DNA of 64,000 bases from positions 125,020 through 189,019 of the forward strand of contig JBCCYL010000001.1 in NCBI GenBank assembly GCA_039189765.1, read 5' to 3'. Source of the stretch: Cyanobacteria bacterium P01_F01_bin.150. Lineage in GTDB: Bacteria; Cyanobacteriota; Cyanobacteriia; CAKZMO01. The notes under the pieces are model-generated. The model did not search any database, was not told where the DNA came from, and saw nothing but the letters and a program-made list of their open reading frames with translations. The position numbers and the translations under genes were made by a program. Below are positions 27,776-55,300 of this stretch, piece after piece (the first letter of the stretch is position 1; each line of letters begins with the position of its first letter).

Positions 27776-27850
27776 GGTGGTGTGGGCGCGTTGGCTTGCT
27801 TACCTCCGCTTTGCCCATAGTGACCTAACCACCGCCTAAAGTTGATCCCC
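27776..27850. repeat. Conserved palindromic intergenic element, copy 1 (GGTGGTGTGGGCGCG...GCCCA...ACCACCGCCTAAAGTTGATCCCC)
   Basis: Shares the GTGTGGGCGCG/GCCCACAC stem and the 3' motif CTAAAGTTGATCCCC with the elements at 38842, 46364 and 55243. This copy has extra loop sequence. Confidence 0.5.
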
Positions 27851-28471
27851 GTTACATTAAAAGAGTGGAAACAATAGATAAGCTTCCAAGTAGATTAAGT
27901 AATATCACCAATGATCACTATAGGAAAAAAAGAGTGTTCAATCTTTATGGGCAATGTTAATATACTAACGAGCTATTGCAATATAGTCTCAATAATTTTG
28001 TCTTTAAACAGGTTTAACTATTCTGGTCATAAGCTTTCTTCTGTTGTAAGCTAAACTGAATTGCTTTTTGATTGTGCAACGCCAGAATTCAGTAATGAGA
28101 GACGAGTTCAGACGATAAAAAGAGGGTTTGAGGGTTCTCAAGTATGACGGGACAAAGATGTAAATAGTTAGTGGCCTTTATAGTCATTTGCTGTTTTAAT
28201 TTTGTCTTAATTTTATATTGCTATTGCCAGTAGCCTATCCAACGGTTTTCTAACTTAATTGATCCTTTTGGCTTTCGAGTCATGCGGAGGGATCCTGTTG
28301 TGGCTGGTGCTGCATTTGTGGCGGTGTGATAGCAAGTATGTCGTTAGTCGTGGAACAGCATTCAACGTTGAGGAAGAGTATTCTTTCTCAATTTGTTTAA
28401 TGCAATGTTCTATTTGTGATGCTCTACCCTATCTTGTGGCCAGCTAGACAATATCGGAGATAGTCCAAACT

Positions 28472-31400
28472 ATGGTACAAGTCAATTTAGCGACTTCAAC
28501 GAACTTTAGCGGTGATGCTAATGCCGTTATTGAGGATCAAGGCAATGAGCTAACGTTTGAATTTAGCCTAGATGAGGCAGCCCCTGCAGGAGGCTTAAAG
28601 GTTTATGTTGATAGCAATGTTCCGGAGATCTTAAATCGATTTAATCTACTAGCGTTAGCCTTTGACCCTTCTAGGTTTTCCAATCTAACAACCAACCAGG
28701 AGTCGTTCACCGATTTCTCCAACAGTGGTTTCTCGGTGACCATTAACGCTGGTGCAACGGAAGCCTCAGTCACTATTCCGATTTTTGACACTGATGAGTC
28801 AATCCCCGATCCGTTCTTCCCAGAGACCTATGATGGATTGACAACGACAACGTTTACCCTCAAGACGCGAGATCAAATTGACTCTGCCGATGAGACAAGC
28901 CCCAGGGGGAGCACAGGAAATGATTTGGACTCCGTAGAAGGTGATGGTGTCCAGATTAGCGACTACACCATTGGTACCGCTTCAAGTACCGTTCTGATTG
29001 CAGATACGGTCAGTCAGTTACCTGGGCCTGTACCAACCGATGGCTATGACGAAGCTGTTAGTGGAGACATTTCAAACGATCCCAGCAGCCCTCTTAGCTT
29101 GCCTTTAGCTGAAGGGACGACAAGTCTGTCGGCAACCACAGGTAACGCAGACCAGGAGTATGTAACCGTCACGGTTCCAGATGGCTTTGAACTTGAATCG
29201 TTAGTGCTTGAGTCTTACTCCCCATCCGATGTTTCCTTTATTGGCGTGCAAGAAGGCACAACCTTTACCGAGCCACTGGACAACAGCGCAACGCTTAGCG
29301 AATTTTTAGGCTACACCCTATTTGGCATTAGTGCTATTGGCACTGACATTCTAGACAATATTGGCAACGGCTCCAATGGTGCAAACTTTGGTGGGCAGGG
29401 ATTTGAAGGGCCACTACCTTCCGGTGACTATACGTTTGCCATACAGCAGCTTGGTGGTCCTAGCGATTACGAATTAAGCTTCAATATTGCTGCTGTTGAT
29501 GACGGCGATGGCGGCGGCGATGGCGGCGATGGCGGCGGCGATGGCGGCGATGGCGGCGGTGGTGACGGCGGCGGTAACGATGGGCCTCCCGTAGTTAGCT
29601 TTGAAGTGGTGCCAAACACCTTCTCAGAAGAGTCCGCAAACAATTTAGTCGAATGGAAGTGGACCGTTACCGGTGAGTTCCCCGAAGATGGCCTCATCGT
29701 CAACCTCGATACCTCTGGAGGAGATGAACCCTTTGCCTTTACTGGACAATTTGCCGCTCAACCCGAACCCGAATTTATCAACGCAGACATCGTTGATTTT
29801 GACTTTAGCGGCAGACTCAATATTCAGCTATCCGAGCCTGAAGCATCATTTAAGCTCTACTTTATTGACGACATCATTGAAGAAGGCACCCAAACCTTTG
29901 AATTCCGACTTGTAGATGGCGAAGGCTACACCGTAGACTCAGCCCTCAACGGCAGTGTCTTTACCATTACTGATGATAATGGGGGTCCCGGTTTCGGTCC
30001 CACCGTTGGTCTGTCCGTGTCCGAGACGGACTTGGCCGAAGGCGACCCTCTAACCGTTACCTTTACGACTGAAGGTGATATTCCTGATGACGGGGTACAG
30101 GTCCTGGTTCAAAGTGATGTATTTGGTGCTCTGGGGCAATTTGAGCTAGCCGACCTAAACAACATCACCACCACTGGCATTGCAGGCTTGCCTGAAGTCG
30201 GTGACGGGGGCGGCAGTAGTTTCTTGGTCACCATCACCGACCCCATCGCAACAATTGATCTAAGCGTCTTTGATGACATCTTGTCGGAAGACCCTCTCGA
30301 TATCGCATTCACTCTGGCCAATGGTGAAGAATATGAGGTAGACCCTGACGCTGCCGGTGTGACCCTAACCATTTCCGATGAAGTTCAGCCTGCCGGACCG
30401 ACGGTTGGGCTGAGCGTTGATAAAACCACCGTAGTAGAAGGTGAGGCATTGACCCTCACTATTGCCGTGGACGGAGAGATTCCTCCAGAGGGATTACAGG
30501 TTCTGATTAATGATGTGGACAGCGTGCAAAATCAAGTCAGAAGTCTGACTGAGTTTGATATTGCCAGCGTGCAAACGGAAGGGATTGATGGGTTCCCCAT
30601 CCCTGCAGAGGGCGACAGCGGGTTCTTTGTAACAGTCACTGAACCTACGGCTACGATTACGCTAAATGCATTTGATGAGGGTGCGGACGAAGACGAAGCG
30701 GCTGAATCATTTACCTTTGCGGTGATTGATGGAGAAGCCTATGAGGTAGACCCAGATGCCAGCGGTGTCACGGTCAACATTGTTGACGTAGCTGACGCTT
30801 CAGAGACGCCCGTCGTCACTCTCACCGTAACGCCGCTTGCTAGTGAAGATGACAATCAAACCATAACTCTTACTTTCAATGTTGAAGGGGAAATCCCAAC
30901 AGATGGGCTACCCATTACAATTGAGGGTGACTTTCTAACCCTGTTTGATCCACAACTTCGCCTGCTTAATCAAAATATTCCTTTGGCAATTGAACCAGCG
31001 ACCGGTCTTGTCCCCATCGCCAATCGAGGCAGCGAATTTGATATTGCGCTTACAGCGCCGGAAGTAACCGTTTCTGTTGTCCTCTTTGATGACATCCTTG
31101 AAGAAGAAGCTCTGGAACTAAGTTTCGCGGTATCAGAAGGAGATGGCTATATTGTTGGTGGAGATGGCCCAGCAACCGTTACCATTGTGGACGGTGATAG
31201 TGTGACTCCTGGCAGCGGTCCAACTGTTAGCCTCTCGGTCACCAACACTAGTGTGGCAGAAGGTGATGAGCTTACAGTTAACTTTGATGTGGATGGTGCC
31301 ATCCCGGATAGCGGTCTTACTGTTTTTGTAGATGGTCCTCCTGCGGCAATCGGCGAATTCGCAATCTTTGATGAGAACAACAATCCATTGGTTACGACTG

Positions 31401-34357: not shown

Positions 34358-34542
34358 GATCCTAGACCTTGTTCAAGCTTTCTAGGAAGATTAGAATGTC
34401 AGGATGAAGAGCATTTTAGGGTCTTCTAGCCCCTTTCCTAATATTCTCTTTACCTCTTGTAAGTTTGACGACTGAGTCAGGAAGATTTCAACGGGATACT
34501 GCGGTCTTTGCTACAGTATCCCGCTTTAAAGTAAAAACCTTA

Positions 34543-34690
34543 TGAATCAACCATTTGTTAGTTTGAGTGCAAAGCCAGATTCAGCTTTAGAAGGCGATCG
34601 CACCACAGTTACCCTAACGTTTAGCCTAAATATTATTCCTCCAGAGTCGAGTCTAACCCTCTAAGGTAGACAGCCCAGACTTGGGGGAAT
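34543..34690 (+). pseudogene. Decayed remnant of a Calx-beta-like module (frameshifted) immediately upstream of gene 34733
   Basis: ATG 34543 translates as MNQPFVSLSAKPDSALEGDRTTVTLTFSLNIIPPESSLTL*, which has the module pattern VSLS..EGD..TVTF. One frame over, 34660-34698 encodes VDSPDLGEFDVY*, matching the family motif VDS....LGEFDVFNAE. The module is split by a stop and a frameshift. Confidence 0.45.
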
Positions 34691-34732
34691 TTGACGTTTA
34701 TTGATTCTAGTAATTTACAGGACCCTACTTCC

Positions 34733-38743: not shown

Positions 38744-38773
38744 GCTATTTCTATTTCTAAGTGATTGACCTCG

Positions 38774-38808
38774 AACGGTCTGTGGCTGCGGCTGTAGACC
38801 GTTTTTTT
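38774..38808 (+). terminator. Putative rho-independent terminator after gene 34733
   Basis: ACGGTCT...AGACCGT stem followed by TTTTTTTG. The stem is imperfect. Confidence 0.4.
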
Positions 38809-38841
38809 GTAAAAAGTATGGCCAATGCAACGATGGTCCTG

Positions 38842-38904
38842 TTGGTTAAGACGTTTTTGTGGAGGCACGTCGCGCTCCCATTAACCAACCACAGTTGATA
38901 CCCC
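38842..38904. repeat. Conserved palindromic intergenic element, copy 2
   Basis: TTGGTTAAGACG...GTGGAGGCACGTCGCGCTCCCA...TTAACCAACCACAGTTGATACCCC. The core GCGCGACGTGCC is in the opposite orientation relative to copy 4, and the 3' AGTTGATACCCC motif is shared. Confidence 0.45.
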
Positions 38905-39840
38905 ATTAATAAAATATTTTTTTAATAAATACAGCGAGTTAATGCCCTAAATTCTGCTACAAAAAACAGGTGATTCTGATAGCAAATACGAAAGGAAAAC
39001 GATTACAGAATGAGTGATGCTTCTTCACATAAAATTTATCAAACTAGCCCATATTGACCCAGGTCAGTGATGCTACTATGAACTCATGTTTACTTAGTGC
39101 AATTAGATATCAATAAGCTTTCGTAAATGCTACTGAGGCATTGGCGATCGCACCAATCTTGAGAATATGTCGCTGTCTTGAGCGACTAGTCAAAAGGGTC
39201 TAAAGGTATGTGCCCCTTGTAAGCAGTTTTGCCCCCATTAATTAACAGGAACTCATTTGATTCTCTAGTTCCTGTCGTATTCTACGTAGAGCCATTTATT
39301 TTAGTAGATACCGCCGGTTGAAACATGCGGCAACATGTCTCAACCAGCTCCCTATGTACTGGGGCGATATCCGCAACAGTATTGCTCACCACAAGAAACC
39401 AGGGTAACCAATCATGCCTATGCCAACTGTAGCATTGTTGACCGTTTCATTGACATCGGATGGTATTCGTAGTGAAGGTTGCGATCGCGCTTCTCCAAAA
39501 CCTTTAATTCCCAGCGTAGGCGACATGGTGTAGATTGTCTCCGGTTTAAATGAGCTTACTATCGTTTTCGCTGTGTTTGTATTTCCACAAGCTCTGACTT
39601 TGTATTCAATATTCGTAGTTTTCAATCCTTCCTTCTCCGATTGGAGAGAGAGACTAGAGGTTATTTTGCAGCCCATACATTAGAGGCCACTGCGTTTTAC
39701 CTAACAATTGATGGCTTTTGATGGTTTTGCCCTTAGCTTTGTCCTTAACCTTCCACAGCAACGTTGAAGGCAAAGCCCAGATCAACCGAGAGATGTTGTT
39801 GGCAGCTCAAATCGTTCCAATTATTTGAGGAATTTGTTTT

Positions 39841-42800
39841 ATGTACTCAGAATCAGTTAGTGGCGACATTACTAACAATCCCAATGATCCCCTGGCTTTG
39901 CCCCTTGAAGAGGGAGCCAATTCTCTCTCTGCAACAACTGGAAATGGTGACCAAGAATACGTTACTGTTACGGTCCCAGCGGGATTTGAGCTTGAGTCAC
40001 TGACCCTAAGCTCATTCTCTTCCGGCGGCGATTCAGCCTTTATTGGAGTTCAATCCGGGACTACTTTTACAGAGCCGCTGGAAGATGGTGCTAACGTTGG
40101 CAATATTTTAGGTTATGCCCTCTTTTCTGGGGGACAGGTTGGCACAAATATCCTCGACAACATCGGTAACGGAGCAGGGGCGATCGGGTTTGATGGTACT
40201 CTACCGGCTGGAGAGTACACCTTTGCCCTACAGCAGCTTAGTGGTCCTACTGATTACGAGCTAACCTTCAATGTTGCCGCTGTGGATGAGGGCGGTGACG
40301 GTGGCGATGGCGGTGACGGTGGTGATGGCGGCGATGGCGGCGATGGCGGCGGGGGCTTACCTGTAGTCAGCTATGAAGCAGTACCTGCTGTATTCTCAGA
40401 AGAGGCAGACAATAATTTAGTCGAATATAAGTTCTCAGTGGATGGTGAGCTTCCGGAAGGGGGGCTTGTTATTAAGTTCAAGTCATTTGGCAATAACGAC
40501 TTTATTGAATGGTCAAATCAGTTTGCAGCGGCCCCTGGTCCAGAACTCGTAAACCTAGAGTTTGCAGATTTTACGTTTAATCCAGAGACTGGACTACTAG
40601 ATGATTTTGATCTACTAATAACGGACACCGAAGCATCGTTTCAGATTTATCTGATTAATGACATCGTGGAAGAAGGCTCCCAGGTGTTTGACTTCCGCGT
40701 TGTCGAGGGAGAGGGCTACATCGTTGATCCAAATCAATCGCCTTTATTTACGATCAATGATGATAATGGTGGCCCTGGCGTTGGTCCCACCATCGGCCTG
40801 TCGGTATCTGAAACAAATCTGGCTGAGGCGGATAGCCTTACCGTTACCTTTGATGTGGATGGAGATATTCCACCCGAAGGGGTACAGGTGCTGGTTCAAA
40901 GCGACGTTGGTGGCTCCCTTGGTCAGTTTGATTTAGCAAATCTGAACAATATCACCACCACTGGGATTGAAGGATTACCTGAAGTGGGGGATGCAGGGGG
41001 CGGTAGCTTCTTTGCCACGCTTACGGCATCGACTGCCACCATTACCCTGGATGTCTTTGATGACATTGTGGCTGAGGACCCTTTAGACATTACTTTTACC
41101 CTGGCTAACGGTGAGGTTTACGAAGTGGACCCCGATGCCGCTAGCGCAACCCTAACGATTTCTGACCAGGAACAGCCCGCAGGTCCCACTGTAAGCCTAA
41201 GCGTAGACAACACTGATTTAGTAGAAGGGGGTGACCCAGTTACCCTCTCTATCGCTGTGGATGGAGCCATCCCTGACGGTGGGTTGCCAGTGCTCATTAA
41301 TGATGTCACCAGCGCTCAGTCAGGAGTCAGAAGTCTGACTGAATTTGACGTGGCGAATGTTATTACGGCTGGTCTTAGCGGCTTTCCTGAACCGGCGGAA
41401 GGAGACAGCGGTTTCTTTGTCACGGTTGTTGAGTCCTCAGCGACTATTACCCTTGGGGCTATTGATGAAGGCGCGGATGAGGATGAATCGCTGGAAAACT
41501 TTACCTTTGAGGTGATTGATGGTGAAGCCTATGAGGTGGATGCAGATGCCGGTAGCGTAACGGTTAGCATTACCGATGCTGCTGATGCTGGCGACGGTGG
41601 CTCTGGCGGTGGTGATGGCATAATGCGTCAAATTGTTGACGGTAACACAAGTATCTCCCTCGATTTGGATGCCTTGGGATTAACCCTAGTGTCTGAGGAT
41701 AGTAGCGGTACCCCCGCCGATGGCTTTGCCCTGGGGTTCGATATCCTGGATGACGAAACTACGTTTGAAATTGCCACAGATCCAGTTGCCTTTGACAGCG
41801 GCACAATCGAGCACTTTGGCTCCGTTACCCTGGGATTGGGGGATGCGGAAGTTACCATCGGAGATTTTTCCATTGGTTTTGATCCCGCGCGAGTATCCGA
41901 TACGGCCAGCGGCTTCTTTGTCTCCGATACCCTTGAGGACGATTTAGGGCTAGAGGTCTTGTTTGATCTGGGTAACCCAGCCATCAGTTTATCTGAGGAT
42001 CAAACCACGCTGGATGTGGGCGGAGATCTGCTCCTTTCTCCAGAACTTGCGTCAGCCCTAGGCTTAGAGGCTGGCATTGATGTGGGTGATGCCTTAGTCG
42101 AGAGTCTGGTCAGAGATCCAGCCGAGACTCCAGTGATATCCATCAGTTTTGTCCCTGCGTCTGAAATCGATCCAGATACGGGGGATACAGTCATTAACGA
42201 AGACGATGGCCGAGAGGTGGCACTGCGGCTATCCTATGATGCGGGTGTCATTCCTCCCGGTGGATATGCTGTTGCTTGGATTCTGGATGTAGACGATTTA
42301 TTTGCTGTTCCTGGCCTCTTTGATGGCAATCGTCCTGCTGGGTTCGAAGAGAATGCCTATCGACTTATTGAACCCCGTGATGACGAGAACGACCCCGGTG
42401 GCACTAAATTCGTGCTTGCACCCCGACAGCTAGAATCCGATCTGTTCTTCTCCATTTTTGACGACATTATTGAAGAAGAACCCATTACTTTAAATCTGGG
42501 CCTCCAGGCAGAAGAAGAGGGCTATGAACTCGGGACGTCGCTTGTAACGATCAGACTCCAAGATGGGCCTAGTGCAACCCCTGGTGAGGGACCAACCGTT
42601 GACCTCTCTGTCGATAGTACAGAAGTTGATGAAGGCGGTGAGTTTACGGTCAACTTTGATGTGGAGGGTGCGATTCCCGATGGTGGTCTCACTGTCTTTG
42701 TCGATGGGCCGCCTGCGGCGTTAAGTGAATTTAATATCTTTGGTGACGATGGGATTGACCCAGAAACAGATATAGTTGGACTCGCTGGCTTCCCCGAGGC

Positions 42801-45800
42801 GGATGGAGATGCAGGCGGATTCTTTGCAACCATCACCGAAAATCAGGCGTCAATCACTCTATCTGTGTTTGAGGATGGTCCTGGGGAAGGGGAAGAAACG
42901 CTCACCTTTGAGCTAGCCGATGGTGAATTGTATGAGGTCGCAAATTCATCGGTTGATCTCACCATCAATAGCGACACTCCAGAGGGAACCGCGATCGTTG
43001 GCATAACCCTAGAACCCACATTTGTATCTGAAGAAGACGAGGGTGCGTCCTTTACCGCAACGTTTACGGTTACGAATGCTGACATTCCTGCGGTGGAATT
43101 TGATGCGGATGGCAACTATGTTTCTGGTGGACTATCGGTTCTGGTTGATGGAGCAGATATTACGCCCATCTTTGATGAGATTACCGGCGGTCCGATTCTT
43201 GATGGACTTGCGATCGGGTCTTTCTTTGACCCCGATCAGCCTAATCTTATTGAATTTGTGCTGTTGCAGGAAGATTCCACGGGAACGCTCAACATCGTTA
43301 ATGATGTCATCGAAGAAGAGAATCAAGACTACACGTTCACAATCTTAAATGACGAAAACGATCTGCTTGGTTCTAACTATGTGGTCAATCCGGATACCGC
43401 CAGTGCGACGGTCACATTATCTGATGGTAATGGCGGGCCTGGGGTTGGTCCCACAGTCGGCATCACGGTAGACAAAGACACCGTGGCCGAAGGAGAGACC
43501 GTCACTCTTAACTTTACGGTCGATGGTGAGATTCCGGATGAGGGGCTTGAAGTCTTAGTTCAGAGTCCGACCCCTGGGGCGATCGGCGAATTTAGTATCT
43601 TTGACGCGGACGGCAACTTCCTAATTGAGACCACTGGCATGGCGGGTTTCCCCATCTCCGCTGATGGGATTGGCAGCAGCTTCTTGGCGACGATTACCGA
43701 GCCAACTGCCAGCATTACCCTCTCTGCGTTTGATGATGGTCCTGACGAAGGAGTAGAGTCCTTGACCTTTGACATTGTCAATGGTGAGGTTTACGAAGTA
43801 TCGGAAATTGAAGGCTCTGTTACCGTAGATATTGTTGATACGGTGTCTGCTCTTCCCACTGTTTCGATTTCTACACCAACTCCAGTGGTCAGTGAAGATA
43901 GCGATCCAACCTTGACCGTCGTCTTTACCGTCGATGGTGAGATTCCTGAGGGTGGCGTGCCCATTAGCATCGGTGGTGATCTAACCAGCCTGTTTGACCC
44001 TGAACTGCGACTACTGGTTCAGGCACCCTTTATCGTCGAACCAGAGACCGGTCTAATTCCCGTGGCCAACCGCGACCCCGAATTTGATATTGCCTTGACG
44101 GCTCCTGAGGTCAGCGTTAGCTTTGAGCTGTTTGACGATATCCTCGAAGAAGAGCCTCTATCCCTTGACTTTGAGCTGTTTGAAGGGGATGGCTACATTG
44201 TCGGCGATACCGTTGCCACGGTCACCCTGGTGGATGGCGATAGTGTGACGCCCGACAGTGGTCCCACCGTGAGCCTGTCGGTTGATGATTCTGACCTTGC
44301 GGAAGGGGATGAATTCACCGTTAACTTTGACGTTGATGGCGATATTCCTGAGGGGGGTCTCACCGTCTTTGTCGATGGACCCCCTGCGGCCATCAGCGAG
44401 TTCAATATCTTTGGTGATGACGGGATTGACCCGGCCACTGATTTAGCGGGTATCGAAGGCTTCCCCGTTGCAGATAATGATGCGGGTGGCTTCTTCGTTA
44501 CTCTAGTTGAAAATCAGGCATCTATTACCCTATCGGTGTTTGATGATGGACCCACTGAAGGACCGGAGTCGATCACCTTTGAGCTGATTGACGGTGAAGA
44601 GTACGAGGTCACGTCCGTTGTGACCCGCGAGTTTAGCTGGACGGGCCAAATTGCTGGATTTAGCGTCGAGGGTGACTTTAGCTACGATGCCAGCCAGACC
44701 TACGAAGCGGGTATTGTGCGGGAGCAGGATCTGCTGTCATTCAATGTGTCTTTCTTTGACCCGGATGGCAATCTGCTACGCACCTACGAAGACAACCAGG
44801 ATTTGAGTCAGTATCCGACGTTTAACTTTGCCTTTGACACCCAAACCCAAGAGATTTTGCAGGATGGCACCTGGAATGTGGATGACAACGTCGATTTAAC
44901 CAGAAACGGCTTTATGATCGGCGAGGGGAATCCGGATCTCAGAGGCGACATCGGCGTGCAGTCGGGACTTGCCTTCTGGTCACGCCCCGCAGATGACAAG
45001 CTACCACACCTGCATGTGGATGACTGGGATAACGAACTTGGCTTCCCCATTGGCTACAGCAGCCATGAAGATGTTTCGTTCCCCACCCAAACCATTGCTG
45101 AACTGATTGAGACGGGCAAAGTGGGTGAAACCTACCTTGAGTCTGCTCAAGCCAGACCAGAGGAACTGGGTGCTCCTGTCGAGGTCTCGGTATCCGGTAA
45201 CGGTTCGGGGGGCGTGGTTGAACTCACCATCAATGATGGCGGTGAGGATGCAGTGTTTGCAGCTGAGTCTGGCGTTACTAGCGTGTTCCTCGACTTTGTG
45301 CTGTTGGAGGAAGTTGCAGGACTGACCCTAGTTAGTGCGGATAGCGATGCAACTCCAGCAGAGCGACCTTCTTTCCTAGACCCATTCCAGGTTGGATTTG
45401 CGATCGCCGACACCACTGACTTCACCTATGCCCCCGCACCCTTTACACCCCTGGGTGGCACCATTGAGCACTCTGGCACCATTACCCTTGGCTTAGGCGG
45501 TGCTGAAGCAACCATTGGTGAATTCTCCATTGGCTTTGATCCAGCTCGGGCGTCTGACACTGCCAGCGGCTTCTTTGTCGCCGATACGCTGGATGACCCA
45601 CTGGGTCTAGAGGTGCTGTTTGATATCAGCGCTCCTGGAACTGTTATCACCTCCGGCGGCAGTCTGGAAATTAGTAACGCTGACCTGCTGCTTGCGCCTG
45701 AATTGGCTGGAGCGTTGGGACTGGCTGACTTGGCTGGAGCCGATGTGGGTGATGCCCAAATTGATGCAGTTGTTGCTCTTACTGATGCACCAGCGCTTAG

Positions 45801-46287
45801 CACTAGCATTGACTTCGAGGGTGATGCCCTAGAGGTTGGGGATGTGGTGACTGACCAGTTTGATGGTTTGACCGTTGCTGTTGAAGGTGAGTTGGAAGCG
45901 ATGATCTTTGATACGGCCAATCCAACCGGAGGCGATTACGACCTCCGCAGTGATGATCTGGGCAAGGTGTTGATTATCTCTGAGGACGGTGACTCTGCTA
46001 ATCCGGATGACAACCTCAGAGGCGGCACCCTAATGTTTGATTGGGACGGTGAGGTCAGCCTTGCCAGCATCGGTCTACTAGATATTGAGGAGTCCGGCGG
46101 TACCGTTACGCTCTATGGCGCAGATGACATGACGGTGTTGACCACTATTGATATTCCTGCGTTGGATGACAACAGCTATCAAAGCCTCAGTATTGGAGCT
46201 GATGCTGTCGGCAAGATGGATGTGTTGCTAGCAGGCAGTGGTGCCATCACCGAAATCATTGTGGGTGAGGATAGCGGCATCGCGTAA
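39841..46287 (+). CDS. Giant (2148 aa) family paralog: N-terminus begins inside a module that is internal in other paralogs; Calx-beta-like modules, two domain-X copies, WTGQIAGFSVEG domain, family C-terminal domain
   Basis: The start MYSESVSGDITNNPNDPL aligns with the internal GYDEA(T/V)SGDIS.(N/D)PS.P of genes 8705 and 28472. The (DGG)n linker is at aa ~150. The tail is ...AGSGAITEIIVGEDSGIA*. Confidence 0.85.
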   Translation: MYSESVSGDITNNPNDPLALPLEEGANSLSATTGNGDQEYVTVTVPAGFELESLTLSSFSSGGDSAFIGVQSGTTFTEPLEDGANVGNILGYALFSGGQVGTNILDNIGNGAGAIGFDGTLPAGEYTFALQQLSGPTDYELTFNVAAVDEGGDGGDGGDGGDGGDGGDGGGGLPVVSYEAVPAVFSEEADNNLVEYKFSVDGELPEGGLVIKFKSFGNNDFIEWSNQFAAAPGPELVNLEFADFTFNPETGLLDDFDLLITDTEASFQIYLINDIVEEGSQVFDFRVVEGEGYIVDPNQSPLFTINDDNGGPGVGPTIGLSVSETNLAEADSLTVTFDVDGDIPPEGVQVLVQSDVGGSLGQFDLANLNNITTTGIEGLPEVGDAGGGSFFATLTASTATITLDVFDDIVAEDPLDITFTLANGEVYEVDPDAASATLTISDQEQPAGPTVSLSVDNTDLVEGGDPVTLSIAVDGAIPDGGLPVLINDVTSAQSGVRSLTEFDVANVITAGLSGFPEPAEGDSGFFVTVVESSATITLGAIDEGADEDESLENFTFEVIDGEAYEVDADAGSVTVSITDAADAGDGGSGGGDGIMRQIVDGNTSISLDLDALGLTLVSEDSSGTPADGFALGFDILDDETTFEIATDPVAFDSGTIEHFGSVTLGLGDAEVTIGDFSIGFDPARVSDTASGFFVSDTLEDDLGLEVLFDLGNPAISLSEDQTTLDVGGDLLLSPELASALGLEAGIDVGDALVESLVRDPAETPVISISFVPASEIDPDTGDTVINEDDGREVALRLSYDAGVIPPGGYAVAWILDVDDLFAVPGLFDGNRPAGFEENAYRLIEPRDDENDPGGTKFVLAPRQLESDLFFSIFDDIIEEEPITLNLGLQAEEEGYELGTSLVTIRLQDGPSATPGEGPTVDLSVDSTEVDEGGEFTVNFDVEGAIPDGGLTVFVDGPPAALSEFNIFGDDGIDPETDIVGLAGFPEADGDAGGFFATITENQASITLSVFEDGPGEGEETLTFELADGELYEVANSSVDLTINSDTPEGTAIVGITLEPTFVSEEDEGASFTATFTVTNADIPAVEFDADGNYVSGGLSVLVDGADITPIFDEITGGPILDGLAIGSFFDPDQPNLIEFVLLQEDSTGTLNIVNDVIEEENQDYTFTILNDENDLLGSNYVVNPDTASATVTLSDGNGGPGVGPTVGITVDKDTVAEGETVTLNFTVDGEIPDEGLEVLVQSPTPGAIGEFSIFDADGNFLIETTGMAGFPISADGIGSSFLATITEPTASITLSAFDDGPDEGVESLTFDIVNGEVYEVSEIEGSVTVDIVDTVSALPTVSISTPTPVVSEDSDPTLTVVFTVDGEIPEGGVPISIGGDLTSLFDPELRLLVQAPFIVEPETGLIPVANRDPEFDIALTAPEVSVSFELFDDILEEEPLSLDFELFEGDGYIVGDTVATVTLVDGDSVTPDSGPTVSLSVDDSDLAEGDEFTVNFDVDGDIPEGGLTVFVDGPPAAISEFNIFGDDGIDPATDLAGIEGFPVADNDAGGFFVTLVENQASITLSVFDDGPTEGPESITFELIDGEEYEVTSVVTREFSWTGQIAGFSVEGDFSYDASQTYEAGIVREQDLLSFNVSFFDPDGNLLRTYEDNQDLSQYPTFNFAFDTQTQEILQDGTWNVDDNVDLTRNGFMIGEGNPDLRGDIGVQSGLAFWSRPADDKLPHLHVDDWDNELGFPIGYSSHEDVSFPTQTIAELIETGKVGETYLESAQARPEELGAPVEVSVSGNGSGGVVELTINDGGEDAVFAAESGVTSVFLDFVLLEEVAGLTLVSADSDATPAERPSFLDPFQVGFAIADTTDFTYAPAPFTPLGGTIEHSGTITLGLGGAEATIGEFSIGFDPARASDTASGFFVADTLDDPLGLEVLFDISAPGTVITSGGSLEISNADLLLAPELAGALGLADLAGADVGDAQIDAVVALTDAPALSTSIDFEGDALEVGDVVTDQFDGLTVAVEGELEAMIFDTANPTGGDYDLRSDDLGKVLIISEDGDSANPDDNLRGGTLMFDWDGEVSLASIGLLDIEESGGTVTLYGADDMTVLTTIDIPALDDNSYQSLSIGADAVGKMDVLLAGSGAITEIIVGEDSGIA

Positions 46288-46302
46288 AAAGCTTTCGATA
46301 AG

Positions 46303-46329
46303 AGCGGGGGGCTACCTCCCGCTTTTTTT
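46303..46329 (+). terminator. Rho-independent terminator after gene 39841
   Basis: AGCGGGGGG-CTAC-CTCCCGC followed by TTTTTTT. The same AAAAGCGGGAG/CTCCCGCTTTT design follows genes 46466 and 55391. Confidence 0.6.
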
Positions 46330-46363
46330 CGATGGGTTTCGTTCTAATGCGAAACAAAATTAA

Positions 46364-46414
46364 CGGTGATGTGGGAGCGACGCGCCCACATCATTCGATT
46401 AAAGTTGATACCCG
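46364..46414. repeat. Conserved palindromic intergenic element, copy 3, flanked by 9-bp direct repeat GAAACAAAA
   Basis: GAAACAAAA[TTAACGGTGATGTGGGAGCGACGCGCCCACATCATTCGATTAAAGTTGATACCCGC]GAAACAAAA. The stem is GATGTGGG/CCCACATC. Confidence 0.5.
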
Positions 46415-46465
46415 CGAAACAAAACTAATTGATGTTTCAACCATTAAAAATTGAGGAGATAGTGT

Positions 46466-49400
46466 ATGTATTCAGAATCAGTCAGCGGCGATATTACAAA
46501 CAATCCTAATGACCCCTTAGCCCTCCCTCTTGAAGAGGGGGCTAATTCCCTTTCTGCAACAACTGGAAATGGTGACCAAGAATACGTTACTGTTACGGTC
46601 CCAGCAGGATTTGAGCTTGAGTCATTGACCCTGAGTTCATTCTCTTCCGGCGGCGATTCAGCCTTTATTGGAGTTCAATCTGGGACTACTTTTACAGAGC
46701 CGCTGGAAGATGGTGCTAACGTTGGCAACATTTTGGGATATGCTCTCTTTTCTGGGGGCCAGGTTGGCACAAATATCCTCGACAATATCGGTAACGGAGC
46801 AGGGGCGATCGGGTTTGATGGTGCCCTATCCGCTGGAGACTACACCTTTGCCCTACAGCAGCTTAGTGGTCCCACCGACTACGAACTAAACTTCAACGTC
46901 GCTGCTGTTGAGGATGGCGGTGACGGTGGTGATGGCGGTGACGGTGGTGATGGCGGTGACGGCGGCGATGGCGGTGACGGCGGTGATGGCGGCGGTGGCC
47001 TACCCGTGGTCAGCTATGAAGCAGTACCTGCCGTCTTCTCAGAAGAGGCAGAGAATAATTTAGTCGAGTATAAGTTCACGGTGGATGGTGAACTTCCTGA
47101 AGGCGGCCTTGTCATTAAATTTAAGTCATTTGGCGACAACGACTTTATTGAATGGTCTAATCAGTTTGCAGGGGACCCTGCTCCAGAGCTTGTGAACCTA
47201 GAGTTTGCAGATTTTACCTTCAATCCAGAGACTGGACTGCTCGATGATTTTGACCTGTTGGTGACGGACACCGAAGCATCGTTTCAGATTTACCTGATTA
47301 ATGACATCGTGGAAGAAGGCTCCCAGGTCTTCGATTTTCGCGTTGTAGAGGGTGAGGGCTACATCGTTGATCCGAATCAATCGCCTCTATTTACGATCAA
47401 TGATGACAATGGTGGCCCTGGCATTGGCCCCACCATCGGTCTGTCAGTATCTGAAACGAATTTGGCTGAAGCGGATAGCCTTACCGTTACCTTTGACGTG
47501 GATGGAGATATTCCACCAGAAGGAGTACAGGTCCTGGTACAGAGTGATGTTGATGGCTCCCTTGGTCAGTTTGACCTGGCTGATCTGGGCAACATTACTA
47601 CCACAGGCATTGCAGGATTGCCTGAAGTCGGCGATGTATTGGGCCGTAGCTTCTTTGCCACGATTACAGAATCAACCGCGACCATCACTCTAAATGTCTT
47701 TGATGACATTATTGCTGAAGAACCCTTGGATATTACCTTTACGCTAGCCAATGGTGAAGTGTATGAGGTGGACCCAGATGCCGCGAGTACAACCCTAACA
47801 ATTTCTGACCAGGTTCAGCCCGCCGGTCCCACTGTAAGTCTAAGCGTGGATAACACCGATTTAGTGGAAGGCGGTGACCCGGTTACCCTCTCTATTTCTG
47901 TGGATGGAGCCATTCCTGACGGTGGGTTGCCGGTGCTAATCAATGATCTCGCCAGCGCTCAGTCTGGGGTAAGGAGTCTCACTGAGTTTGACGTGGCGAA
48001 TGTAACCACGACGGGTATTGATGGCTTTCCATCACCTGCTGAGGGGGACAGCGGCTTCTTTGTAACCGTAACTGACTCGAACGCCACGGTTACCCTAGCT
48101 GCGTTTGATGAGGGCGCGGATGAGGATGAAGCCTCAGAGATCTTTACCTTCGAGGTCGTTGATGGAGAAGCCTACGAGGTGGATGCGGACGCAGGCAGTG
48201 TGACGGTTAGTATTACTGATTCGTCCGACGCGGGTGGTGGAGATTTGCCTGTCCTGAGCTTTACCGCATCCACTGACACCCTTAGTGAAGCAGAAGGGAC
48301 AAGTCTGACGTTCAACTTCTCTGTTGAAGGTGCATTCCCGGATGAAGGCGTCGTTGTTCGCTTTGACGAAAACTTCTTTGATACGGGCGATCAGATTAAC
48401 TTCAATATTTTTGATTTGGAGAATCTGGAGTTCTTCGATTTTGAAGAAACCTCTCCTGGCCTCTTTACCGTTGACTATTTATTGTCTGCGCCCGAAGGCT
48501 CATTGACGACAGGCGTCTTTGATGACAACGTGGCGGAAGCTGAATTTATCTACAATCCCAGCATCTTACCCATCCCTGATGCCAACTACACCATTAATCC
48601 TGATGCGAGTTCCGTTAGCATCTCCATTGTGGATGGTGTGGATAGCACGGGTGGTCCAGTTATCAGTCTTGACATCACTCCTACCGATGTAGCAGAAGGC
48701 GATACCCTCACCCTCACCTTTACTGCAGAGGGCACCATTCCCGATGGCGGCGTTGAAATAAATGTCGATACCGGCGTTGGTGTTGCCTTGGGTGACTTTA
48801 TTAGCACTGATGAGAACGGTATTCCCAACATTACAGTCACTGGATTTGCGGGGCTACCTGCATCCAATGGTGCAGCCAGCGGCTTTAGTGCCTTTATGGT
48901 AGATAGCACTGCCACTATCACCCTTGATGTGGTGAATGATGGCTTTGGCGAAGGGACCGAGACGTTTGATGTCGCCCTGCTAGATGGAGAAAACTATGAT
49001 GTGGCATCCACTGATGCCATTTCTGTGAGCATTAGCGACGCCGATCCTTCCTTACCTGTAGTAGGTCTAGAGGTTTCTCCCACCGAGAAAACCGAAGCTG
49101 ATGATGGCCCTGAAATCACGCTTACCTTTACCGTTGAGGGTGAAATTCCCGCTGTGGAGCTTGATGCTGAAGGTGCGTATGTCTCCGGTGGATTGCCCAT
49201 TGAATTTGACGGTAGCGATGTAATTGCCATCTTTGAACAGATTACTGGGGGAGCTATTCCTGATGGCTTGGAGGTGACTCGTTTCCCGGCAGACGAGACC
49301 GACACTACCTATGAATTTACCCTGCTGCAAAACACCGCAACGGTTTCAGTGACGCTTCTAGATGATGTTATCCAAGAAGAGGCACAAAACTTCTCGTTTA

Positions 49401-51967
49401 ACCTAATTCCTAGCCCTGATGGACCCTATGCGGTTAACCCTGAGGCGATTGGCGGTACGGTAACGGTGACAGACGGTATCGGTGGTCCTGGGGTTGGCCC
49501 CACGGTTGGCATCACGGTAACTGAAACTGCCTTGACAGAAGGGGATACGGTCACCCTCAACTTTACAGTCGATGGTGATATTCCTGATGGGGGTCTTGAG
49601 ATCCTAGTTCAGAGTCCGACTCCTGGAGCGATTGGTGAGTTTAACATCTTTGACGCGGATGGCAATTTTGTCATTGAGACCACTGGACTGGCGGGTTTCC
49701 CCATCTCTGCGGATGGTCAGGGAAGCAGCTTCCTGGCTACGATCACGGAGCCAAATGCAAGTGTCACTCTGTCTGTATTTGATGACGGTCCGAATGAAGG
49801 TTCGGAAGAGTTAAGCTTCAACATCGTTGATGGTGAGGTTTATGAAGTCTCAGAAACTGAGGGTTCTATTACCATCAATATTGATGATGGTGGTCCTATA
49901 GCTCCCGACCCCATTGAGGTTGTTGTTACTGTAGAAAACTTGGCCCCCGACGCAGGAACGTTTATTACTCCGCTTTGGGTCAGCTTCCACAACGGTGAAT
50001 TTGATATTTACAATCGAGGAGAAGCGGCAACGCCAGGGTTGGAAAGCATTGCTGAAGATGGAAGTGCAGCGCTCCTTGCTGAAGAGTTCATCAATAGCGG
50101 GTTTGGTGCAGTTGAAGGCGTCATTATTGGTCCTGAGGGATTGGGTGGTCCAATCGATCCGGGCGAAGTTGCCTCAGCAACATTCACCATCGATCCAAGT
50201 GCTGATAATAGTCAGTTCTTTAGCTATGCGGCGATGATTCTTCCCTCCAATGATGCCTTTATCGCTAATGGCGATCCGATGGTTCATAGCCTGTTTGATG
50301 CGGATGGCAATTTTGTTGGAGCTGACTTCATCGTTGCGGGGGGTGAAGTGTTAGATGCAGGCACCGAGGTCAATGATGAGCTCGCTGAAACTACTGCTTT
50401 CTTCTCGCAAGCCGCTCCAAATACTGGTGACGACGAGAACGGCACCGTTGAACTTCATCCAGGGTTTATTGAAGGCGGTCGCATCCTCAGCGAAGATGGC
50501 ACCACAGAGGGGGCACCTGCTGCTTTCACTAGCGCTGACTTTACTGCTGATGGATATCAGGTTGTTCGGATTACGGTAGAAGAGACGACTCCTCCTCCTA
50601 CAGGTGATGCCCCTGTCGTCAGCTTTAACATTGAGCCAGATGTGGTGATTGAAGAAGACGGTGCAGACGCTGTCTTTAGCCTCAACTTTGCGGTAGATGG
50701 AGAAATCCCAACCCCTGAGTTTGATGAGGACGGTAACTATGTTTCCGGCGGTCTGTCTGTTCTCTTACGAGTCAATGATGCTGAGGTATTTGGACAGTTT
50801 GGTAATGATTTCAGCATAGAAGGTCTGACCTTTGGGGAGTTTAGTGAAGTTGGCGGAACCGTGTTCCCACCTGATTTCTTTATCCAAGAGTTTATTCTGT
50901 TGGAAGAGACTGCTAATCTTACTCAAAACATCGCCAACGATATTCTTGAGGAAGAGCCTGCATCGTTCAACTTTGAGCTGATTGAAGCGGGTGGCCTAAT
51001 TGACTCAAACTACACCATCAATCCAGATGAGTTCACCGATACATTCTCCATTGAAGATGGCAACGGTGGTCCTGGTGTAGGCCCCACAGTTGGTATTTCG
51101 GTAACTGAGACCGAGCTGTTTGAGGGAGACCAAGTTACTCTAAACTTCACCACTGAAGGTGATATTCCAGCGGAAGGGGTGCAGGTACTGGTTCAAAGTC
51201 CAAACGATGCAGCGGTTGGTGAGTTTGTCATCTTTAATGAAGACGGTAGCCCTGCCATCGAGCTGGAGGGCATTGCAGGCTTCCCTGAAGGCGATGGCAA
51301 CAGCTTCTTGCTCACCATTACCGAGCCGGATGCAAGCATCACGCTTTCCGTGTTTGATGATGGTCCAAATGAAGGGCTAGAACCATTGACCTTTGAGGTG
51401 GTCAATGGGGAAGAGTACGAAGTTGCGGCGGATGCTGGCAGCGTGGAGCTGACCATCGATGATGGCGGACCAATACCTGGCGGTAGCATTGACTTCGAGG
51501 GTGATGCCCTAGAGGTTGGTGATGTGGTCAACGACCAGTTTGATGGTTTGACCGTTGCGGTTGAAGGTGAGTTGGAGGCGATGATTTTTGATACGGCCAA
51601 TCCCACCGGAGGGGATTACGACCTGCGCAGTGATGATCTGGGTCAGGTGTTGATTATCTCTGAGGACGGCGACTCTGCTGACCCAGATGACAATATTAGA
51701 GGCGGCACCCTGATGTTTGATTGGGATGGTGGGGTCAGTCTTGAGAGCATTGGTCTGCTTGATATTGAAGAGTCAGGCGGCATGGTCACTCTGTATGGGG
51801 TAGATGACACCACTGTGCTAGCGACCTTTGATATTCCGGCATTGGGCGACAACAGCCTCCAGTCCATCGATATCGGCACTGCTGATGTCGGCAAGATGAA
51901 TGTGCTGTTAGCCGGTAGTGGCGCTATTACCGAAATTGTCCTTGCTGAGGATAGCAGCATCGCATAA
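46466..51967 (+). CDS. Giant (1833 aa) family paralog, recent duplicate of gene 39841 over its first ~600 codons; Calx-beta-like modules, spondin-N-like domain, family C-terminal domain
   Basis: ATG 46466 has GAGGAG upstream. The N-terminal ~600 aa is above 90% identical to the gene at 39841. The spondin-N-like domain TVENLAPDAGTFITPLWVSFHNGEFDIYN is at ~49905-50580. The tail is ...AGSGAITEIVLAEDSSIA*. Confidence 0.85.
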   Translation: MYSESVSGDITNNPNDPLALPLEEGANSLSATTGNGDQEYVTVTVPAGFELESLTLSSFSSGGDSAFIGVQSGTTFTEPLEDGANVGNILGYALFSGGQVGTNILDNIGNGAGAIGFDGALSAGDYTFALQQLSGPTDYELNFNVAAVEDGGDGGDGGDGGDGGDGGDGGDGGDGGGGLPVVSYEAVPAVFSEEAENNLVEYKFTVDGELPEGGLVIKFKSFGDNDFIEWSNQFAGDPAPELVNLEFADFTFNPETGLLDDFDLLVTDTEASFQIYLINDIVEEGSQVFDFRVVEGEGYIVDPNQSPLFTINDDNGGPGIGPTIGLSVSETNLAEADSLTVTFDVDGDIPPEGVQVLVQSDVDGSLGQFDLADLGNITTTGIAGLPEVGDVLGRSFFATITESTATITLNVFDDIIAEEPLDITFTLANGEVYEVDPDAASTTLTISDQVQPAGPTVSLSVDNTDLVEGGDPVTLSISVDGAIPDGGLPVLINDLASAQSGVRSLTEFDVANVTTTGIDGFPSPAEGDSGFFVTVTDSNATVTLAAFDEGADEDEASEIFTFEVVDGEAYEVDADAGSVTVSITDSSDAGGGDLPVLSFTASTDTLSEAEGTSLTFNFSVEGAFPDEGVVVRFDENFFDTGDQINFNIFDLENLEFFDFEETSPGLFTVDYLLSAPEGSLTTGVFDDNVAEAEFIYNPSILPIPDANYTINPDASSVSISIVDGVDSTGGPVISLDITPTDVAEGDTLTLTFTAEGTIPDGGVEINVDTGVGVALGDFISTDENGIPNITVTGFAGLPASNGAASGFSAFMVDSTATITLDVVNDGFGEGTETFDVALLDGENYDVASTDAISVSISDADPSLPVVGLEVSPTEKTEADDGPEITLTFTVEGEIPAVELDAEGAYVSGGLPIEFDGSDVIAIFEQITGGAIPDGLEVTRFPADETDTTYEFTLLQNTATVSVTLLDDVIQEEAQNFSFNLIPSPDGPYAVNPEAIGGTVTVTDGIGGPGVGPTVGITVTETALTEGDTVTLNFTVDGDIPDGGLEILVQSPTPGAIGEFNIFDADGNFVIETTGLAGFPISADGQGSSFLATITEPNASVTLSVFDDGPNEGSEELSFNIVDGEVYEVSETEGSITINIDDGGPIAPDPIEVVVTVENLAPDAGTFITPLWVSFHNGEFDIYNRGEAATPGLESIAEDGSAALLAEEFINSGFGAVEGVIIGPEGLGGPIDPGEVASATFTIDPSADNSQFFSYAAMILPSNDAFIANGDPMVHSLFDADGNFVGADFIVAGGEVLDAGTEVNDELAETTAFFSQAAPNTGDDENGTVELHPGFIEGGRILSEDGTTEGAPAAFTSADFTADGYQVVRITVEETTPPPTGDAPVVSFNIEPDVVIEEDGADAVFSLNFAVDGEIPTPEFDEDGNYVSGGLSVLLRVNDAEVFGQFGNDFSIEGLTFGEFSEVGGTVFPPDFFIQEFILLEETANLTQNIANDILEEEPASFNFELIEAGGLIDSNYTINPDEFTDTFSIEDGNGGPGVGPTVGISVTETELFEGDQVTLNFTTEGDIPAEGVQVLVQSPNDAAVGEFVIFNEDGSPAIELEGIAGFPEGDGNSFLLTITEPDASITLSVFDDGPNEGLEPLTFEVVNGEEYEVAADAGSVELTIDDGGPIPGGSIDFEGDALEVGDVVNDQFDGLTVAVEGELEAMIFDTANPTGGDYDLRSDDLGQVLIISEDGDSADPDDNIRGGTLMFDWDGGVSLESIGLLDIEESGGMVTLYGVDDTTVLATFDIPALGDNSLQSIDIGTADVGKMNVLLAGSGAITEIVLAEDSSIA

Positions 51968-51979
51968 AGCGTTCGAGAA

Positions 51980-52010
51980 AAGCGGGAGGTGATTAATCTC
52001 CCGCTTTTGC
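51980..52010 (+). terminator. Rho-independent terminator after gene 46466
   Basis: AGCGGGAG-GTGATTAAT-CTCCCGCT followed by TTTGC. Confidence 0.55.
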
Positions 52011-52094
52011 AATTTCCTCGTTCCCAGCGTCTCGCCTGGAACATCGTGTTTCTTATAACGTTGCACTATTTTGGATTCTGGAGAAAATCAATTT

Positions 52095-54872: not shown

Positions 54873-55242
54873 CACGATCTATTGGCCTGATATTCAGCTA
54901 TTCTACAGAGGAGAATTCTAATCGTTTTGCAACTGATGACCGTTTCCATGCTCTTGATCTAAATAGAAAATGGTAAAAGCTGTTTGTCTTGACCTTCAAG
55001 AGCCATCCCCCTATAAGCAGTCTCAGAGTACTTAACGATGATGGTATTGAGCAGACTAGCAAAACACTCACTGGGCAAAGTATTTCCTGTGCAAAATACT
55101 TGCTGTGCAAAAAGATCATATAAACGCATTAGTTAAGCGTAGCTTTATTGTTTCTGATCGGTCTGATTTATCTTGGGCGATCGCACTGTCCTGACTCTAA
55201 TTTGAAAACTGGAACTGTTCAGTAAAAGAAGTTTACTGTAAG

Positions 55243-55300
55243 GCGAAACAAGATGAACGGTGGTGTGGGCGCGACGTGCCCACACCACTCGCCTAAGTTC
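55243..55300. repeat. Conserved palindromic intergenic element, copy 4
   Basis: GCGAAACAAGATGAACGGTGGTGTGGGC-GCGACGT-GCCCACACCACTCGCCTAAGTTCGATCCCCCC has a perfect 11-bp stem. Its left end (GCGAAACAA.AT.AACGGTG) matches copy 3. Confidence 0.5.

Follow-up and report, generated by a model that had tools for sequence, protein, structure and literature searches.

Among the cyanobacteria, Microcystis and Anabaena possess transposable elements of the miniature inverted-repeat type (MITEs). Nezha, as mentioned in PMC10969869 after Zhou et al. 2008, is likewise a cyanobacterial MITE. In prokaryotes in general, MITEs such as the Correia element of Neisseria and ERIC are typically under 500 bp and have no coding capacity, and they are defined by their size, terminal inverted repeats (TIRs), direct repeats waning with age, and stable stem-loops, a definition that the element described here fits (PMC10969869). 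The extragenic palindromes known as REPs are, according to PMC3733652, 20–40 bp long and in most cases bear GTAG or CGTC as a tag on one side.

The analyzed window was a stretch of 64,000 nt from contig JBCCYL010000001.1 of Cyanobacteria bacterium P01_F01_bin.150 (positions 125,020 to 189,019, forward strand). A preliminary description of this DNA had reported four copies of a short palindromic element upstream of giant genes, and all four were confirmed at their places; the count was nevertheless incomplete, as a fifth copy was found within the window and a sixth to the left of it. The family is thus known from six copies within ~71 kb of one genome and from one clear foreign copy (L004). The copies and associated features in the source genome were as follows (window coordinates, except for the last line):

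4006 to 4014, forward strand: left flanking repeat of copy 5, TAAAGCGTG, holding the upstream stop codon (7/9 match to AAAAGCATG, in register with both termini).
4015 to 4092, forward strand: copy 5, full-length, absent from the preliminary description (nhmmer E = 6.3e-6 with a profile that did not include copy 5; 89.4 bits with covariance model R1).
4093 to 4101, forward strand: right flanking repeat of copy 5, AAAAGCATG, holding the ATG of the ABC gene (decayed 9-bp direct repeat, or 8-bp with 6/8 matches).
27757 to 27850, forward strand: copy 1, degenerate (covariance model, CM, 12.4 bits).
38840 to 38903, forward strand: copy 2, the most degenerate copy (CM 9.5 bits; nhmmer E = 3.5e-10 with a profile including copy 2).
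46334 to 46413, forward strand: copy 3, full-length, 80 nt (CM 101.5 bits; arm alignment).
46414 to 46435, forward strand: partial second copy, GCGAAACAAAACTAATTGATGT, element positions 16 to ~40 (22 nt, with an 11-nt exact repeat of 46349–46359).
55228 to 55307, forward strand: copy 4, nearly full-length (CM 93.3 bits; folding z = −4.2; arm alignment).
Logan contig L105 of the same organism, 6076 to 6155: copy 6, ~0.8 kb left of the window (CM 71 bits).

The repeat unit was found to be ~78–81 nt long, and each full copy is a single long imperfect palindrome with the termini 5′-GGGTTTCG... and ...GTTGATMCCC-3′ (the right terminus is also written GTTGATACCC). The left end, GGGTTTCG, lies 15–30 nt 5′ of the starts given earlier; the extents of copies 3 and 4 were revised to the coordinates listed above. 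The TIRs GGGTTTC and GATACCC agree at 6/7 positions. The left arm and the reverse-complemented right arm were aligned over their full length, bar a 13-nt insert, ACAAAATTAACGG, confined to the left arm; the score of this end-to-end alignment in copies 3 and 4 and in the L004 copy was reached by 0/200 shuffles, while in copy 5 the match between the arms was judged by eye only. RNAfold likewise predicts a hairpin comprising the whole element. In the covariation and folding check proposed in the preliminary description, the GC-rich inner stem was seen to vary via compensatory substitutions (5/12 pairs; 98% of cells paired), and copies 3 and 4 fold better than shuffled sequences (z = −3.5 and −4.2, respectively). 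The copies are mutually 65–74% identical, and the composite pattern GGTGRTGTGGG..CCCA..TAARKTYGATMCCC matches copies 1, 3 and 4, with 0 matches in 100 shuffles. Copies 3 and 4 have 42 nt in common at 88% identity (blastn E = 6e-8), with the remaining intergenic DNA unrelated, and no relation was seen between the flanks of the different copies either.

The copies differ in their state of preservation, and decayed, truncated and partial ones are present (copies 1 and 2 and the segment 46414–46435). Copy 1 retains the right terminus and the hairpin base but not the left terminus, and its hairpin is interrupted by insertions of ~20 nt and 9 nt; over GGTGGTGTGGGCGCG it is identical to copy 4 at 15/15 positions. 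Copy 2 lies 36 nt 3′ of the intrinsic terminator (38773–38804) that belongs to the giant gene before it; it has kept the right terminus, AGTTGATACCCC, has a hairpin that is rebuilt, lacks the left terminus and contains insertions. Copy 3 begins 4 nt past the intrinsic terminator of gene 39841–46287 and is followed by the ATG at 46466. In copy 4, the inner stem is perfect over 13 bp, the left terminus has diverged (GAAGTTTAC in place of GGGTTTCG), and the right terminus contains an extra C. On its left, copy 5 has the TAA (4006–4008) that ends an unannotated ORF of 254 aa, and on its right it has ATG 4099, with which the first ABC gene of the SbmA/BacA type begins. The copies had earlier been placed 66–950 nt upstream of gene starts; measured from the end of the element, the next start codon is 6, 621, 937, 52 and 83 nt away for copies 5, 1, 2, 3 and 4, respectively; four of the source-genome copies end 6–83 nt before a start codon. 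All six are oriented like the adjacent downstream genes (chance ~1 in 32); in the comparison between genomes, the element was found in both orientations relative to genes. The paralogous intergenic regions 51968–52070 and 62399–62482 share the terminator of 46288–46465, yet they are without the element. It should be noted that the neighbors of the copies include an ABC gene, an RTX gene and, in another genome, an iron-transport operon.

Direct repeats bracket three of the five full copies, namely, L004 (8/8 nt), copy 6 (7/7 nt) and copy 5 (7/9 nt). The repeats CTTGCGGC in L004, CGTCCTC at copy 6 and TAAAGCGTG/AAAAGCATG at copy 5 abut both element termini exactly, and no flanking duplication was seen at copy 3 or copy 4. 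The direct repeat GCGAAACAAAA previously noted at copy 3 does exist, at 46349 and 46414; however, it is not the target-site duplication that it had been suggested to be, since its first copy is internal to the element, being conserved in copy 4 and in the foreign homologue, and its second copy opens the 22-nt partial second element. L004 is an 81-nt homologue in a Synechococcales genome (CM 38 bits, E = 4e-6), which lies antisense to the neighboring genes, between two unrelated transport genes, and overlaps the 3′ end of one gene. When the element and one repeat were removed in silico, an ATPase ORF ending in ...IPIAASSKESIL* was obtained, with its TGA overlapping the ATG of the next gene (ATGA); without the 89 bp, the ATPase–SBP junction would read ...ATTGCCGCAAGTTCAAAGGAG... 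The same insertion was also seen in an independent sample (L101). A true empty site for it was sought in the nearest relatives (~70% identity), and none was obtained because gene order differs in them.

In the closest syntenic relative of the source genome, TARA scaffold L097 (ABC protein 66% identical), the orthologues of the genes flanking copy 5 are 1 nt apart. In the CM search, L097, L098 and L099 yielded no copy, and neither did 78/80 of the giant-gene loci of relatives (1.25 Mb); a match in L097 at 14377 lies inside coding sequence and was rejected as chance. The only CM matches among these 80 loci were L004 and, weakly, L023 (4665–4747, 22.6 bits), where a similar hairpin, GTGTGGGGCGC..GCGCCCCACAC, lies inside a longer palindrome without the right-terminal motif; this is possibly a distant relative of the element. 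The flanking target duplications indicate insertion rather than descent.

The copies probably constitute one family of MITE-like elements, i.e., 78–81-nt non-coding DNA forming a long imperfect palindrome, and a new MITE family is the best reading of the element. Its length is too short for encoding a transposase and falls within the MITE size range. In such a family, the conserved termini would be the binding sites of a transposase encoded elsewhere in the genome, and insertion into intergenic DNA would duplicate 7–9 bp of the target; the duplications imply that staggered-cut (DDE-type) chemistry may have moved the element. The copies near giant genes would then be passengers of the intergenic space and not regulators, and their uniform forward orientation in the locus may reflect selection against the opposite one, with which the sense transcript would contain a hairpin and a T-rich tract. 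Judging from the age of the copies (65–74% mutual identity), the family has probably ceased to be active in the source genome. Like prokaryotic MITEs in general, the element is short, non-coding and intergenic, possesses TIRs and is flanked by short direct repeats, which decay as copies age, would form a long stable stem-loop in transcripts or strands, and is present near start codons and within operons. Unlike them, it is nearly all palindromic, its inner stem evolves by compensatory change, and a conserved one-armed 13-nt insert confers polarity on it; with ~80 nt, it is among the smallest in size. In general description, it resembles Nezha and the MITEs of Microcystis and Anabaena in belonging to the same host phylum and in being small and located in intergenic DNA.

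The preliminary description had proposed either a tRNA-derived mobile element or a conserved 5′-UTR structure or sRNA. The mobile part of the former was upheld by the TIRs, the direct repeats at three copies, the restored ORF, L097 without the insert, and the unrelated flanks, whereas the tRNA part was not. A tRNA-derived repeat (SINE-like, or a duplicated tRNA 3′ end left by integrating elements) is suggested by the resemblance of GTTCGATCC in copy 4 to a T-loop. However, this T-arm-like sequence, regarded earlier as a 3′ motif common to all copies, occurs in copy 4 only, as the C is missing in the other five source-genome copies (GTTGAT in four, GCCGAT in copy 5) and in L004, and there is no complementary 5′ strand of a T-stem. 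ARAGORN found no tRNA or tmRNA in the window, and permissive Rfam scans of copies 3 and 4 and the L004 copy (E up to 10) gave only chance-level matches, none of them to tRNA; the tRNA origin is thus refuted for practical purposes and was regarded as the least probable of all the readings. A cis-acting structured RNA (a leader, a riboswitch-like element, or a site of processing or antitermination) that is cotranscribed with the downstream gene and co-regulates the giant exoprotein genes and the ABC transporter would agree with the sense-strand position of all six source-genome copies upstream of a gene, with the four that end close to a start codon, with the compensatory substitutions that maintain the inner hairpin, and with the folding of copies 3 and 4. 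Nevertheless, this explanation appears unlikely, and a conserved 5′-UTR structure or sRNA was not sustained: the orthologous leaders of the closest relatives are without the element (L097, L098 and L099; 78/80 loci), the foreign copy is antisense and between unrelated genes, copies 2 and 3 start just past intrinsic terminators, copies 1 and 2 are 0.6–0.9 kb from the downstream gene, the target duplications indicate insertion, and no Rfam family matches (no match at gathering score in the whole window). The 5′–3′ pairing considered in this connection, a pseudoknot or outer pairing of AUUAAC / GAUGAAC with GUUGAU / GUUCGAUC, holds in copies 3 and 4 and L004 but breaks down in copy 5, and the arm-to-arm palindrome, of which it would be a part, accounts for it better. 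The 3′ motif TTGATA was also considered as a −35 box and rejected, as a −10 did not consistently accompany it and nothing could be learned from a promoter scan; AACGGTGATGTG agreed with the RfaH ops/JUMPstart element at only 7/12 positions.

A REP-like extragenic palindrome, mobilized by a REP-associated tyrosine transposase (RAYT) or kept as a stabilizer or terminator at mRNA ends, has a similarly low probability. The element shares with REP/BIME sequences an extragenic GC-rich palindrome placed after genes, with a hairpin conserved in structure and not in sequence. On the reverse strand, the hairpin is followed by a T-rich tail derived from the left-arm insert, with 3–5 T in 8 nt in 4/5 full copies, and copy 4 was flagged there as terminator-like. 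At the same time, the unit is ~80 nt, twice as long as a REP, its conserved termini lie at a distance from the hairpin, and no GTAG/CGTC tag adjoins the palindrome (the adjoining bases are AACGG / TCGCC in copies 3 and 4). Transposition of the HUH/Y1 type produces no target duplication, unlike the insertion of the three copies with duplications, and terminal repeats are also present. Moreover, real terminators in the window have better T-tracts than the element does. A known terminator-like small interspersed repeat offers a further parallel in having a hairpin and a T-rich tract like an intrinsic terminator in one orientation, although here the likeness is weak (3–5 T in the first 8 nt; 1/5 copies flagged) and lies on the antisense strand in the locus, and sequence and host are unrelated. 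It is very improbable that the element is a recombination site (an integron attC-like or other site-specific recombinase target) bounding exchangeable giant-gene cassettes. Imperfect palindromes between mosaic, paralogous genes and a bulged base of copy 4 in a possible outer pairing GATGAAC/GTTCGATC would agree with such a site, but the attC core sites RYYYAAC/GTTRRRY are not fitted by the candidates AATTAAC/GTTGATA of copy 3, the element is at only some gene boundaries, and copies also adjoin the ABC and RTX genes and lie in the iron-transport operon of another genome. Furthermore, a Pfam scan of 12 window ORFs, those at 8606 and 20202 and the short ones excepted, gave no integrase, recombinase or transposase domain (short intergenic ORFs were inspected by eye).

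A plain passive MITE is not quite what one would expect from the compensatory change in 5/12 pairs, the conserved 13-nt insert in one arm and the orientation shared by all six copies. Judged from the sequences, the changes in the inner stem suggest that selection acts on the structure of the hairpin and not on a sequence bound by a transposase, and since a DDE-type MITE needs no compensatory stem change, room is left for a role as RNA or single-stranded DNA. There is a small chance that the element, although mobile, is under selection for its fold and not for its sequence. In one version, an unusual transposase would recognize a single-stranded hairpin and still make 7–9-bp target duplications; in another, a mobile RNA module would have been recruited as an orientation-dependent terminator, insulator or processing site before giant exoprotein, RTX and ABC-exporter genes.

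Further copies were sought with three DNA patterns in 185,579 species genomes (once) and in JGI metagenomes (twice), collections that do not include the source genome, and 0, 0 and 15 matches were obtained; all 15 lay in high-GC coding sequence and were rejected as chance. Comparison of two element copies with plasmid records by blastn revealed nothing, as did that of the left 8 kb of the window. Since these pattern scans and plasmid searches gave no real match, the element is apparently not a widespread named family. No partner transposase or full-length IS bearing the element's termini was found, and none was seen in the window.

With the MITE-like reading, the repeated hairpins of the giant-gene cluster are explained as insertions and not as a regulatory code, which is mainly of value for annotation. 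The covariance model and the termini (GGGTTTCG...GTTGATMCCC, with 7–9-bp duplications) are tools with which the transposase and further members of the family can be sought. The giant exoprotein genes could, hypothetically, be modulated by the copies in 5′ leaders or operons if these do affect expression or termination. One gene start was also corrected: the ABC gene begins at ATG 4099 and not at GTG 4012, from which the reading frame runs through the element.

All four palindromic copies of the preliminary description were recovered in the window, and a composite pattern of hairpin base and 3' motif matched copies 1, 3 and 4 but 0/100 dinucleotide shuffles. When each of the ten intergenic regions in the giant-gene cluster was compared with every other, copies 3 and 4 had 42 nt in common at 88% (E = 6 × 10−8), and copies 1 and 4 were identical at 15/15 nt; besides the element, these regions had practically nothing in common, and the flanks of the copies were unrelated to one another. 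A profile from the four copies matched a fifth at 4033–4092 (E = 6 × 10−6) and, marginally, L004, a locus retrieved from a Synechococcales MAG, where a copy was confirmed by a covariance model built from copies 3, 4 and 5 (38 bits, E = 4 × 10−6 in 1.25 Mb). A sixth copy was found on L105, a Logan contig of the window's organism reaching 6.9 kb further left than the window.

Element copies of the source genome (window coordinates unless stated)
27757–27850, + strand: copy 1, with insertions, left terminus gone
38840–38903, + strand: copy 2, with insertions, left terminus gone
46334–46413, + strand: copy 3
46414–46435: partial second copy, 22 nt, directly after copy 3
55228–55307, + strand: copy 4
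4015–4092: copy 5, full-length on reading of the sequence, between TAA 4006–4008, the stop of a 254-aa ORF, and ATG 4099, where the first gene of an SbmA/BacA-type ABC pair starts
L105 6076–6155: copy 6, 71 bits with the covariance model

Full copies were 78–81 nt long (copy 3, for example, reads GGGTTTCGTTCTAATGCGAAACAAAATTAACGGTGATGTGGGAGCGACGCGCCCACATCATTCGATTAAAGTTGATACCC), with identities of 65–74% among copies within the source genome. The left arm aligned end to end with the reverse-complemented right arm, the exception being a 13-nt insert confined to the left arm (ACAAAATTAACGG and variants); the alignment score was reached by 0/200 shuffles for copies 3, 4 and that of L004, and RNAfold predicted a whole-element hairpin matching this alignment. 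The termini GGGTTTC and GATACCC and the right-arm motif TAAAGTTGAT were conserved at the sequence level, and the GC-rich inner stem was conserved as a structure, with 98% of cells paired and 5 of 12 pairs changed on both sides among five distinct copies (e.g., GGTGATG to GCAGGAG to GGGAAAG). Its covariation score was reached by no shuffle, and pairing dropped to 42–49% in slid registers. Alternatively, the left arm may form a small hairpin at its 5' end (GTTTCG/CGAAAC), a fold with weak support (83% paired and no double changes).

In L004, a perfect direct repeat of 8 bp, which reads CTTGCGGC on the strand of the element, directly adjoined the 81-nt element at each terminus, and the element lay antisense between the genes of a FecE-type ATPase and a periplasmic binding protein, the ATPase ORF extending into it. 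In silico removal of the element and one repeat gave an ATPase ending in ...IPIAASSKESIL before the stop; this stop, TGA, overlaps the start codon of the following gene as ATGA, the usual arrangement of coupled genes. An identical insertion was present in an independent sample (L101). Copy 6 had a perfect 7-bp repeat, CGTCCTC, abutting its termini on both sides, and copy 5 was bracketed by TAAAGCGTG and AAAAGCATG (7/9 match), the left repeat containing the stop codon of the upstream ORF and the right one the downstream start codon. The orthologous stop and start were 1 nt apart in L097, a TARA scaffold representing the closest syntenic relative (ABC protein 66% identical; gene order as in the window, namely, RTX, DUF3102, 245-aa ORF, two ABC genes and giant gene). 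The mechanical ORF start of the first ABC gene, GTG 4012, runs through the inserted element (4012–4098), and comparison with the paralogue and L097 places its real start at ATG 4099. No flanking repeat was found at copies 3 and 4; the direct repeat previously suggested as a possible target duplication at copy 3 is accounted for by the partial second copy. The element was absent from the intergenic regions after genes 46466–51967 and 55391–62398, which have the same downstream terminator hairpin as 39841–46287.

Among 80 loci (1.25 Mb) of other cyanobacteria and Rhodobacteraceae carrying the C-terminal domain of the giant proteins, the covariance model matched only in L004 and, weakly, in L023, and it detected no copies in L097, L098 (Cyanothece sp. 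SIO2G6) and L099. A termini-based scan of all fetched sequence (1.47 Mb) gave no further copies, no real match came from scanning GTDB species genomes and JGI metagenomes with patterns, and plasmid records gave none; beyond the window, the source organism is represented by short Logan contigs only. In L023, a Leptolyngbyaceae MAG, two long palindromes (4571–4625 and 4665–4756) lie downstream of a giant gene, in the gap between two genes on the minus strand. The second closely resembles the window element in its inner stem, GTGTGGGGCGC..GCGCCCCACAC, but not in its termini (TATAGCG...CGCTATA), and may belong to a distantly related repeat family.

The element is best explained as a new MITE family with 7–9-bp target duplications; the suggestion of a MITE was supported by these duplications, the TIRs, the ORF restored on removal and the 1-nt gap in L097. 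Such duplications would imply a staggered-cut transposase supplied in trans. Its features agree with the published definition of prokaryotic MITEs (<500 bp, TIRs, stable stem-loops and flanking direct repeats waning with age; PMC10969869). The proposed tRNA-derived origin was not upheld, as ARAGORN found no tRNA and the T-loop-like GTTCGATCC was restricted to copy 4. No Rfam match reached the gathering score within the window, and permissive scans of copies 3, 4 and that of L004 gave chance-level matches only. The element departs from the published criteria for REPs (20–40 bp, GTAG or CGTC tag; PMC3733652), and its core sites are a misfit for attC.

On the MITE reading, the copies beside giant genes would be occupants of intergenic space and not a common regulatory device: copies 2 and 3 begin right behind intrinsic terminators, the next gene is 0.6–0.9 kb away from copies 1 and 2, and the element is lacking from the orthologous leaders of relatives; a conserved leader or sRNA, the other possibility raised, found no support on the same grounds. 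Two observations leave a functional role of the element a low probability: its inner stem changes by compensation, and all six source-genome copies point the same way as the genes next downstream (a chance of about 1/32). This bias could plausibly arise if the opposite orientation were polar on the downstream gene, since on the reverse strand the 13-nt insert forms a T-rich tract after the hairpin and copy 4 was flagged as terminator-like. The reverse-strand tails had 3–5 T in the first 8 nt in 4/5 full copies; the true terminators of the locus have clearly stronger T-tracts.

A different palindrome of 13–15 nt, (G)TGCAAAWTTTGCA(C), is found repeatedly in the intergenic DNA of the locus.

Sites of (G)TGCAAAWTTTGCA(C)
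19535–19549, window
27703–27717, window
6019–6031, L105
4351–4363, L097
7075–7087, L002
4519–4531, L020

In the TARA relative, the orthologous position upstream of the RTX gene has the palindrome as well, conserved, and in two other cyanobacterial MAGs it is intergenic, adjoining giant genes; within the window alone, it was not above chance at 3 mismatches. It looks like an operator for a dimeric regulator and is a better candidate for a common regulatory signal than the MITE. Crp-family genes are present in the related loci L099 and L100. The two longest intergenic regions, those upstream of genes 20202 and 39841, each contain one copy of an exact 16-nt repeat, CAGTGATGCTACTATR (19892–19907 and 39064–39079); the repeat includes a -10-like hexamer, TACTAT, and may be a shared promoter.

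The neighbourhood of window 1–8056, considered with L105, L097 and L100, has an iron or transport flavour and retains its synteny between genomes, with genes for a TonB-dependent receptor, an MFS_3 transporter, RTX proteins, a DUF3102 protein and two SbmA/BacA ABC proteins, as well as a PKHD-type 2OG-Fe(II) hydroxylase (26958–27620); L100 additionally has FecCD/FecE/binding-protein genes and a ferritin-like gene. At 6085–6170, in the gap separating the two ABC genes, tandem CCCCAACT (~6 copies) is followed by AAAATCC (~5 copies).

All eight giant proteins (genes ending at 19315, 26669, 34357, 38743, 46287, 51967, 54872 and 62398) have a common C-terminal domain in the last ~165 codons (58–89% identity between paralogues; motifs MIFDxxNPTGGDxDL, LIISEDGDSxDPDDN and GSGAITEI), for which no Pfam or NCBIfam match was found at E up to 1. 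Its 208 relatives detected by tblastn come from cyanobacteria, Rhodobacteraceae, Planctomycetes and others, and it adjoins paired SbmA/BacA-type ABC genes in the window and in the three related loci examined (L097, L098 and L100); a possible role is that of an uncharacterised signal for export or anchoring. The intrinsic terminators behind three giant genes (46303–46330, 51975–52008 and 62408–62437) are mutually homologous, AAAAGCGGGAG..CTCCCGCTTTTT, so that the 3' untranslated end was duplicated along with the conserved C-terminal domain.
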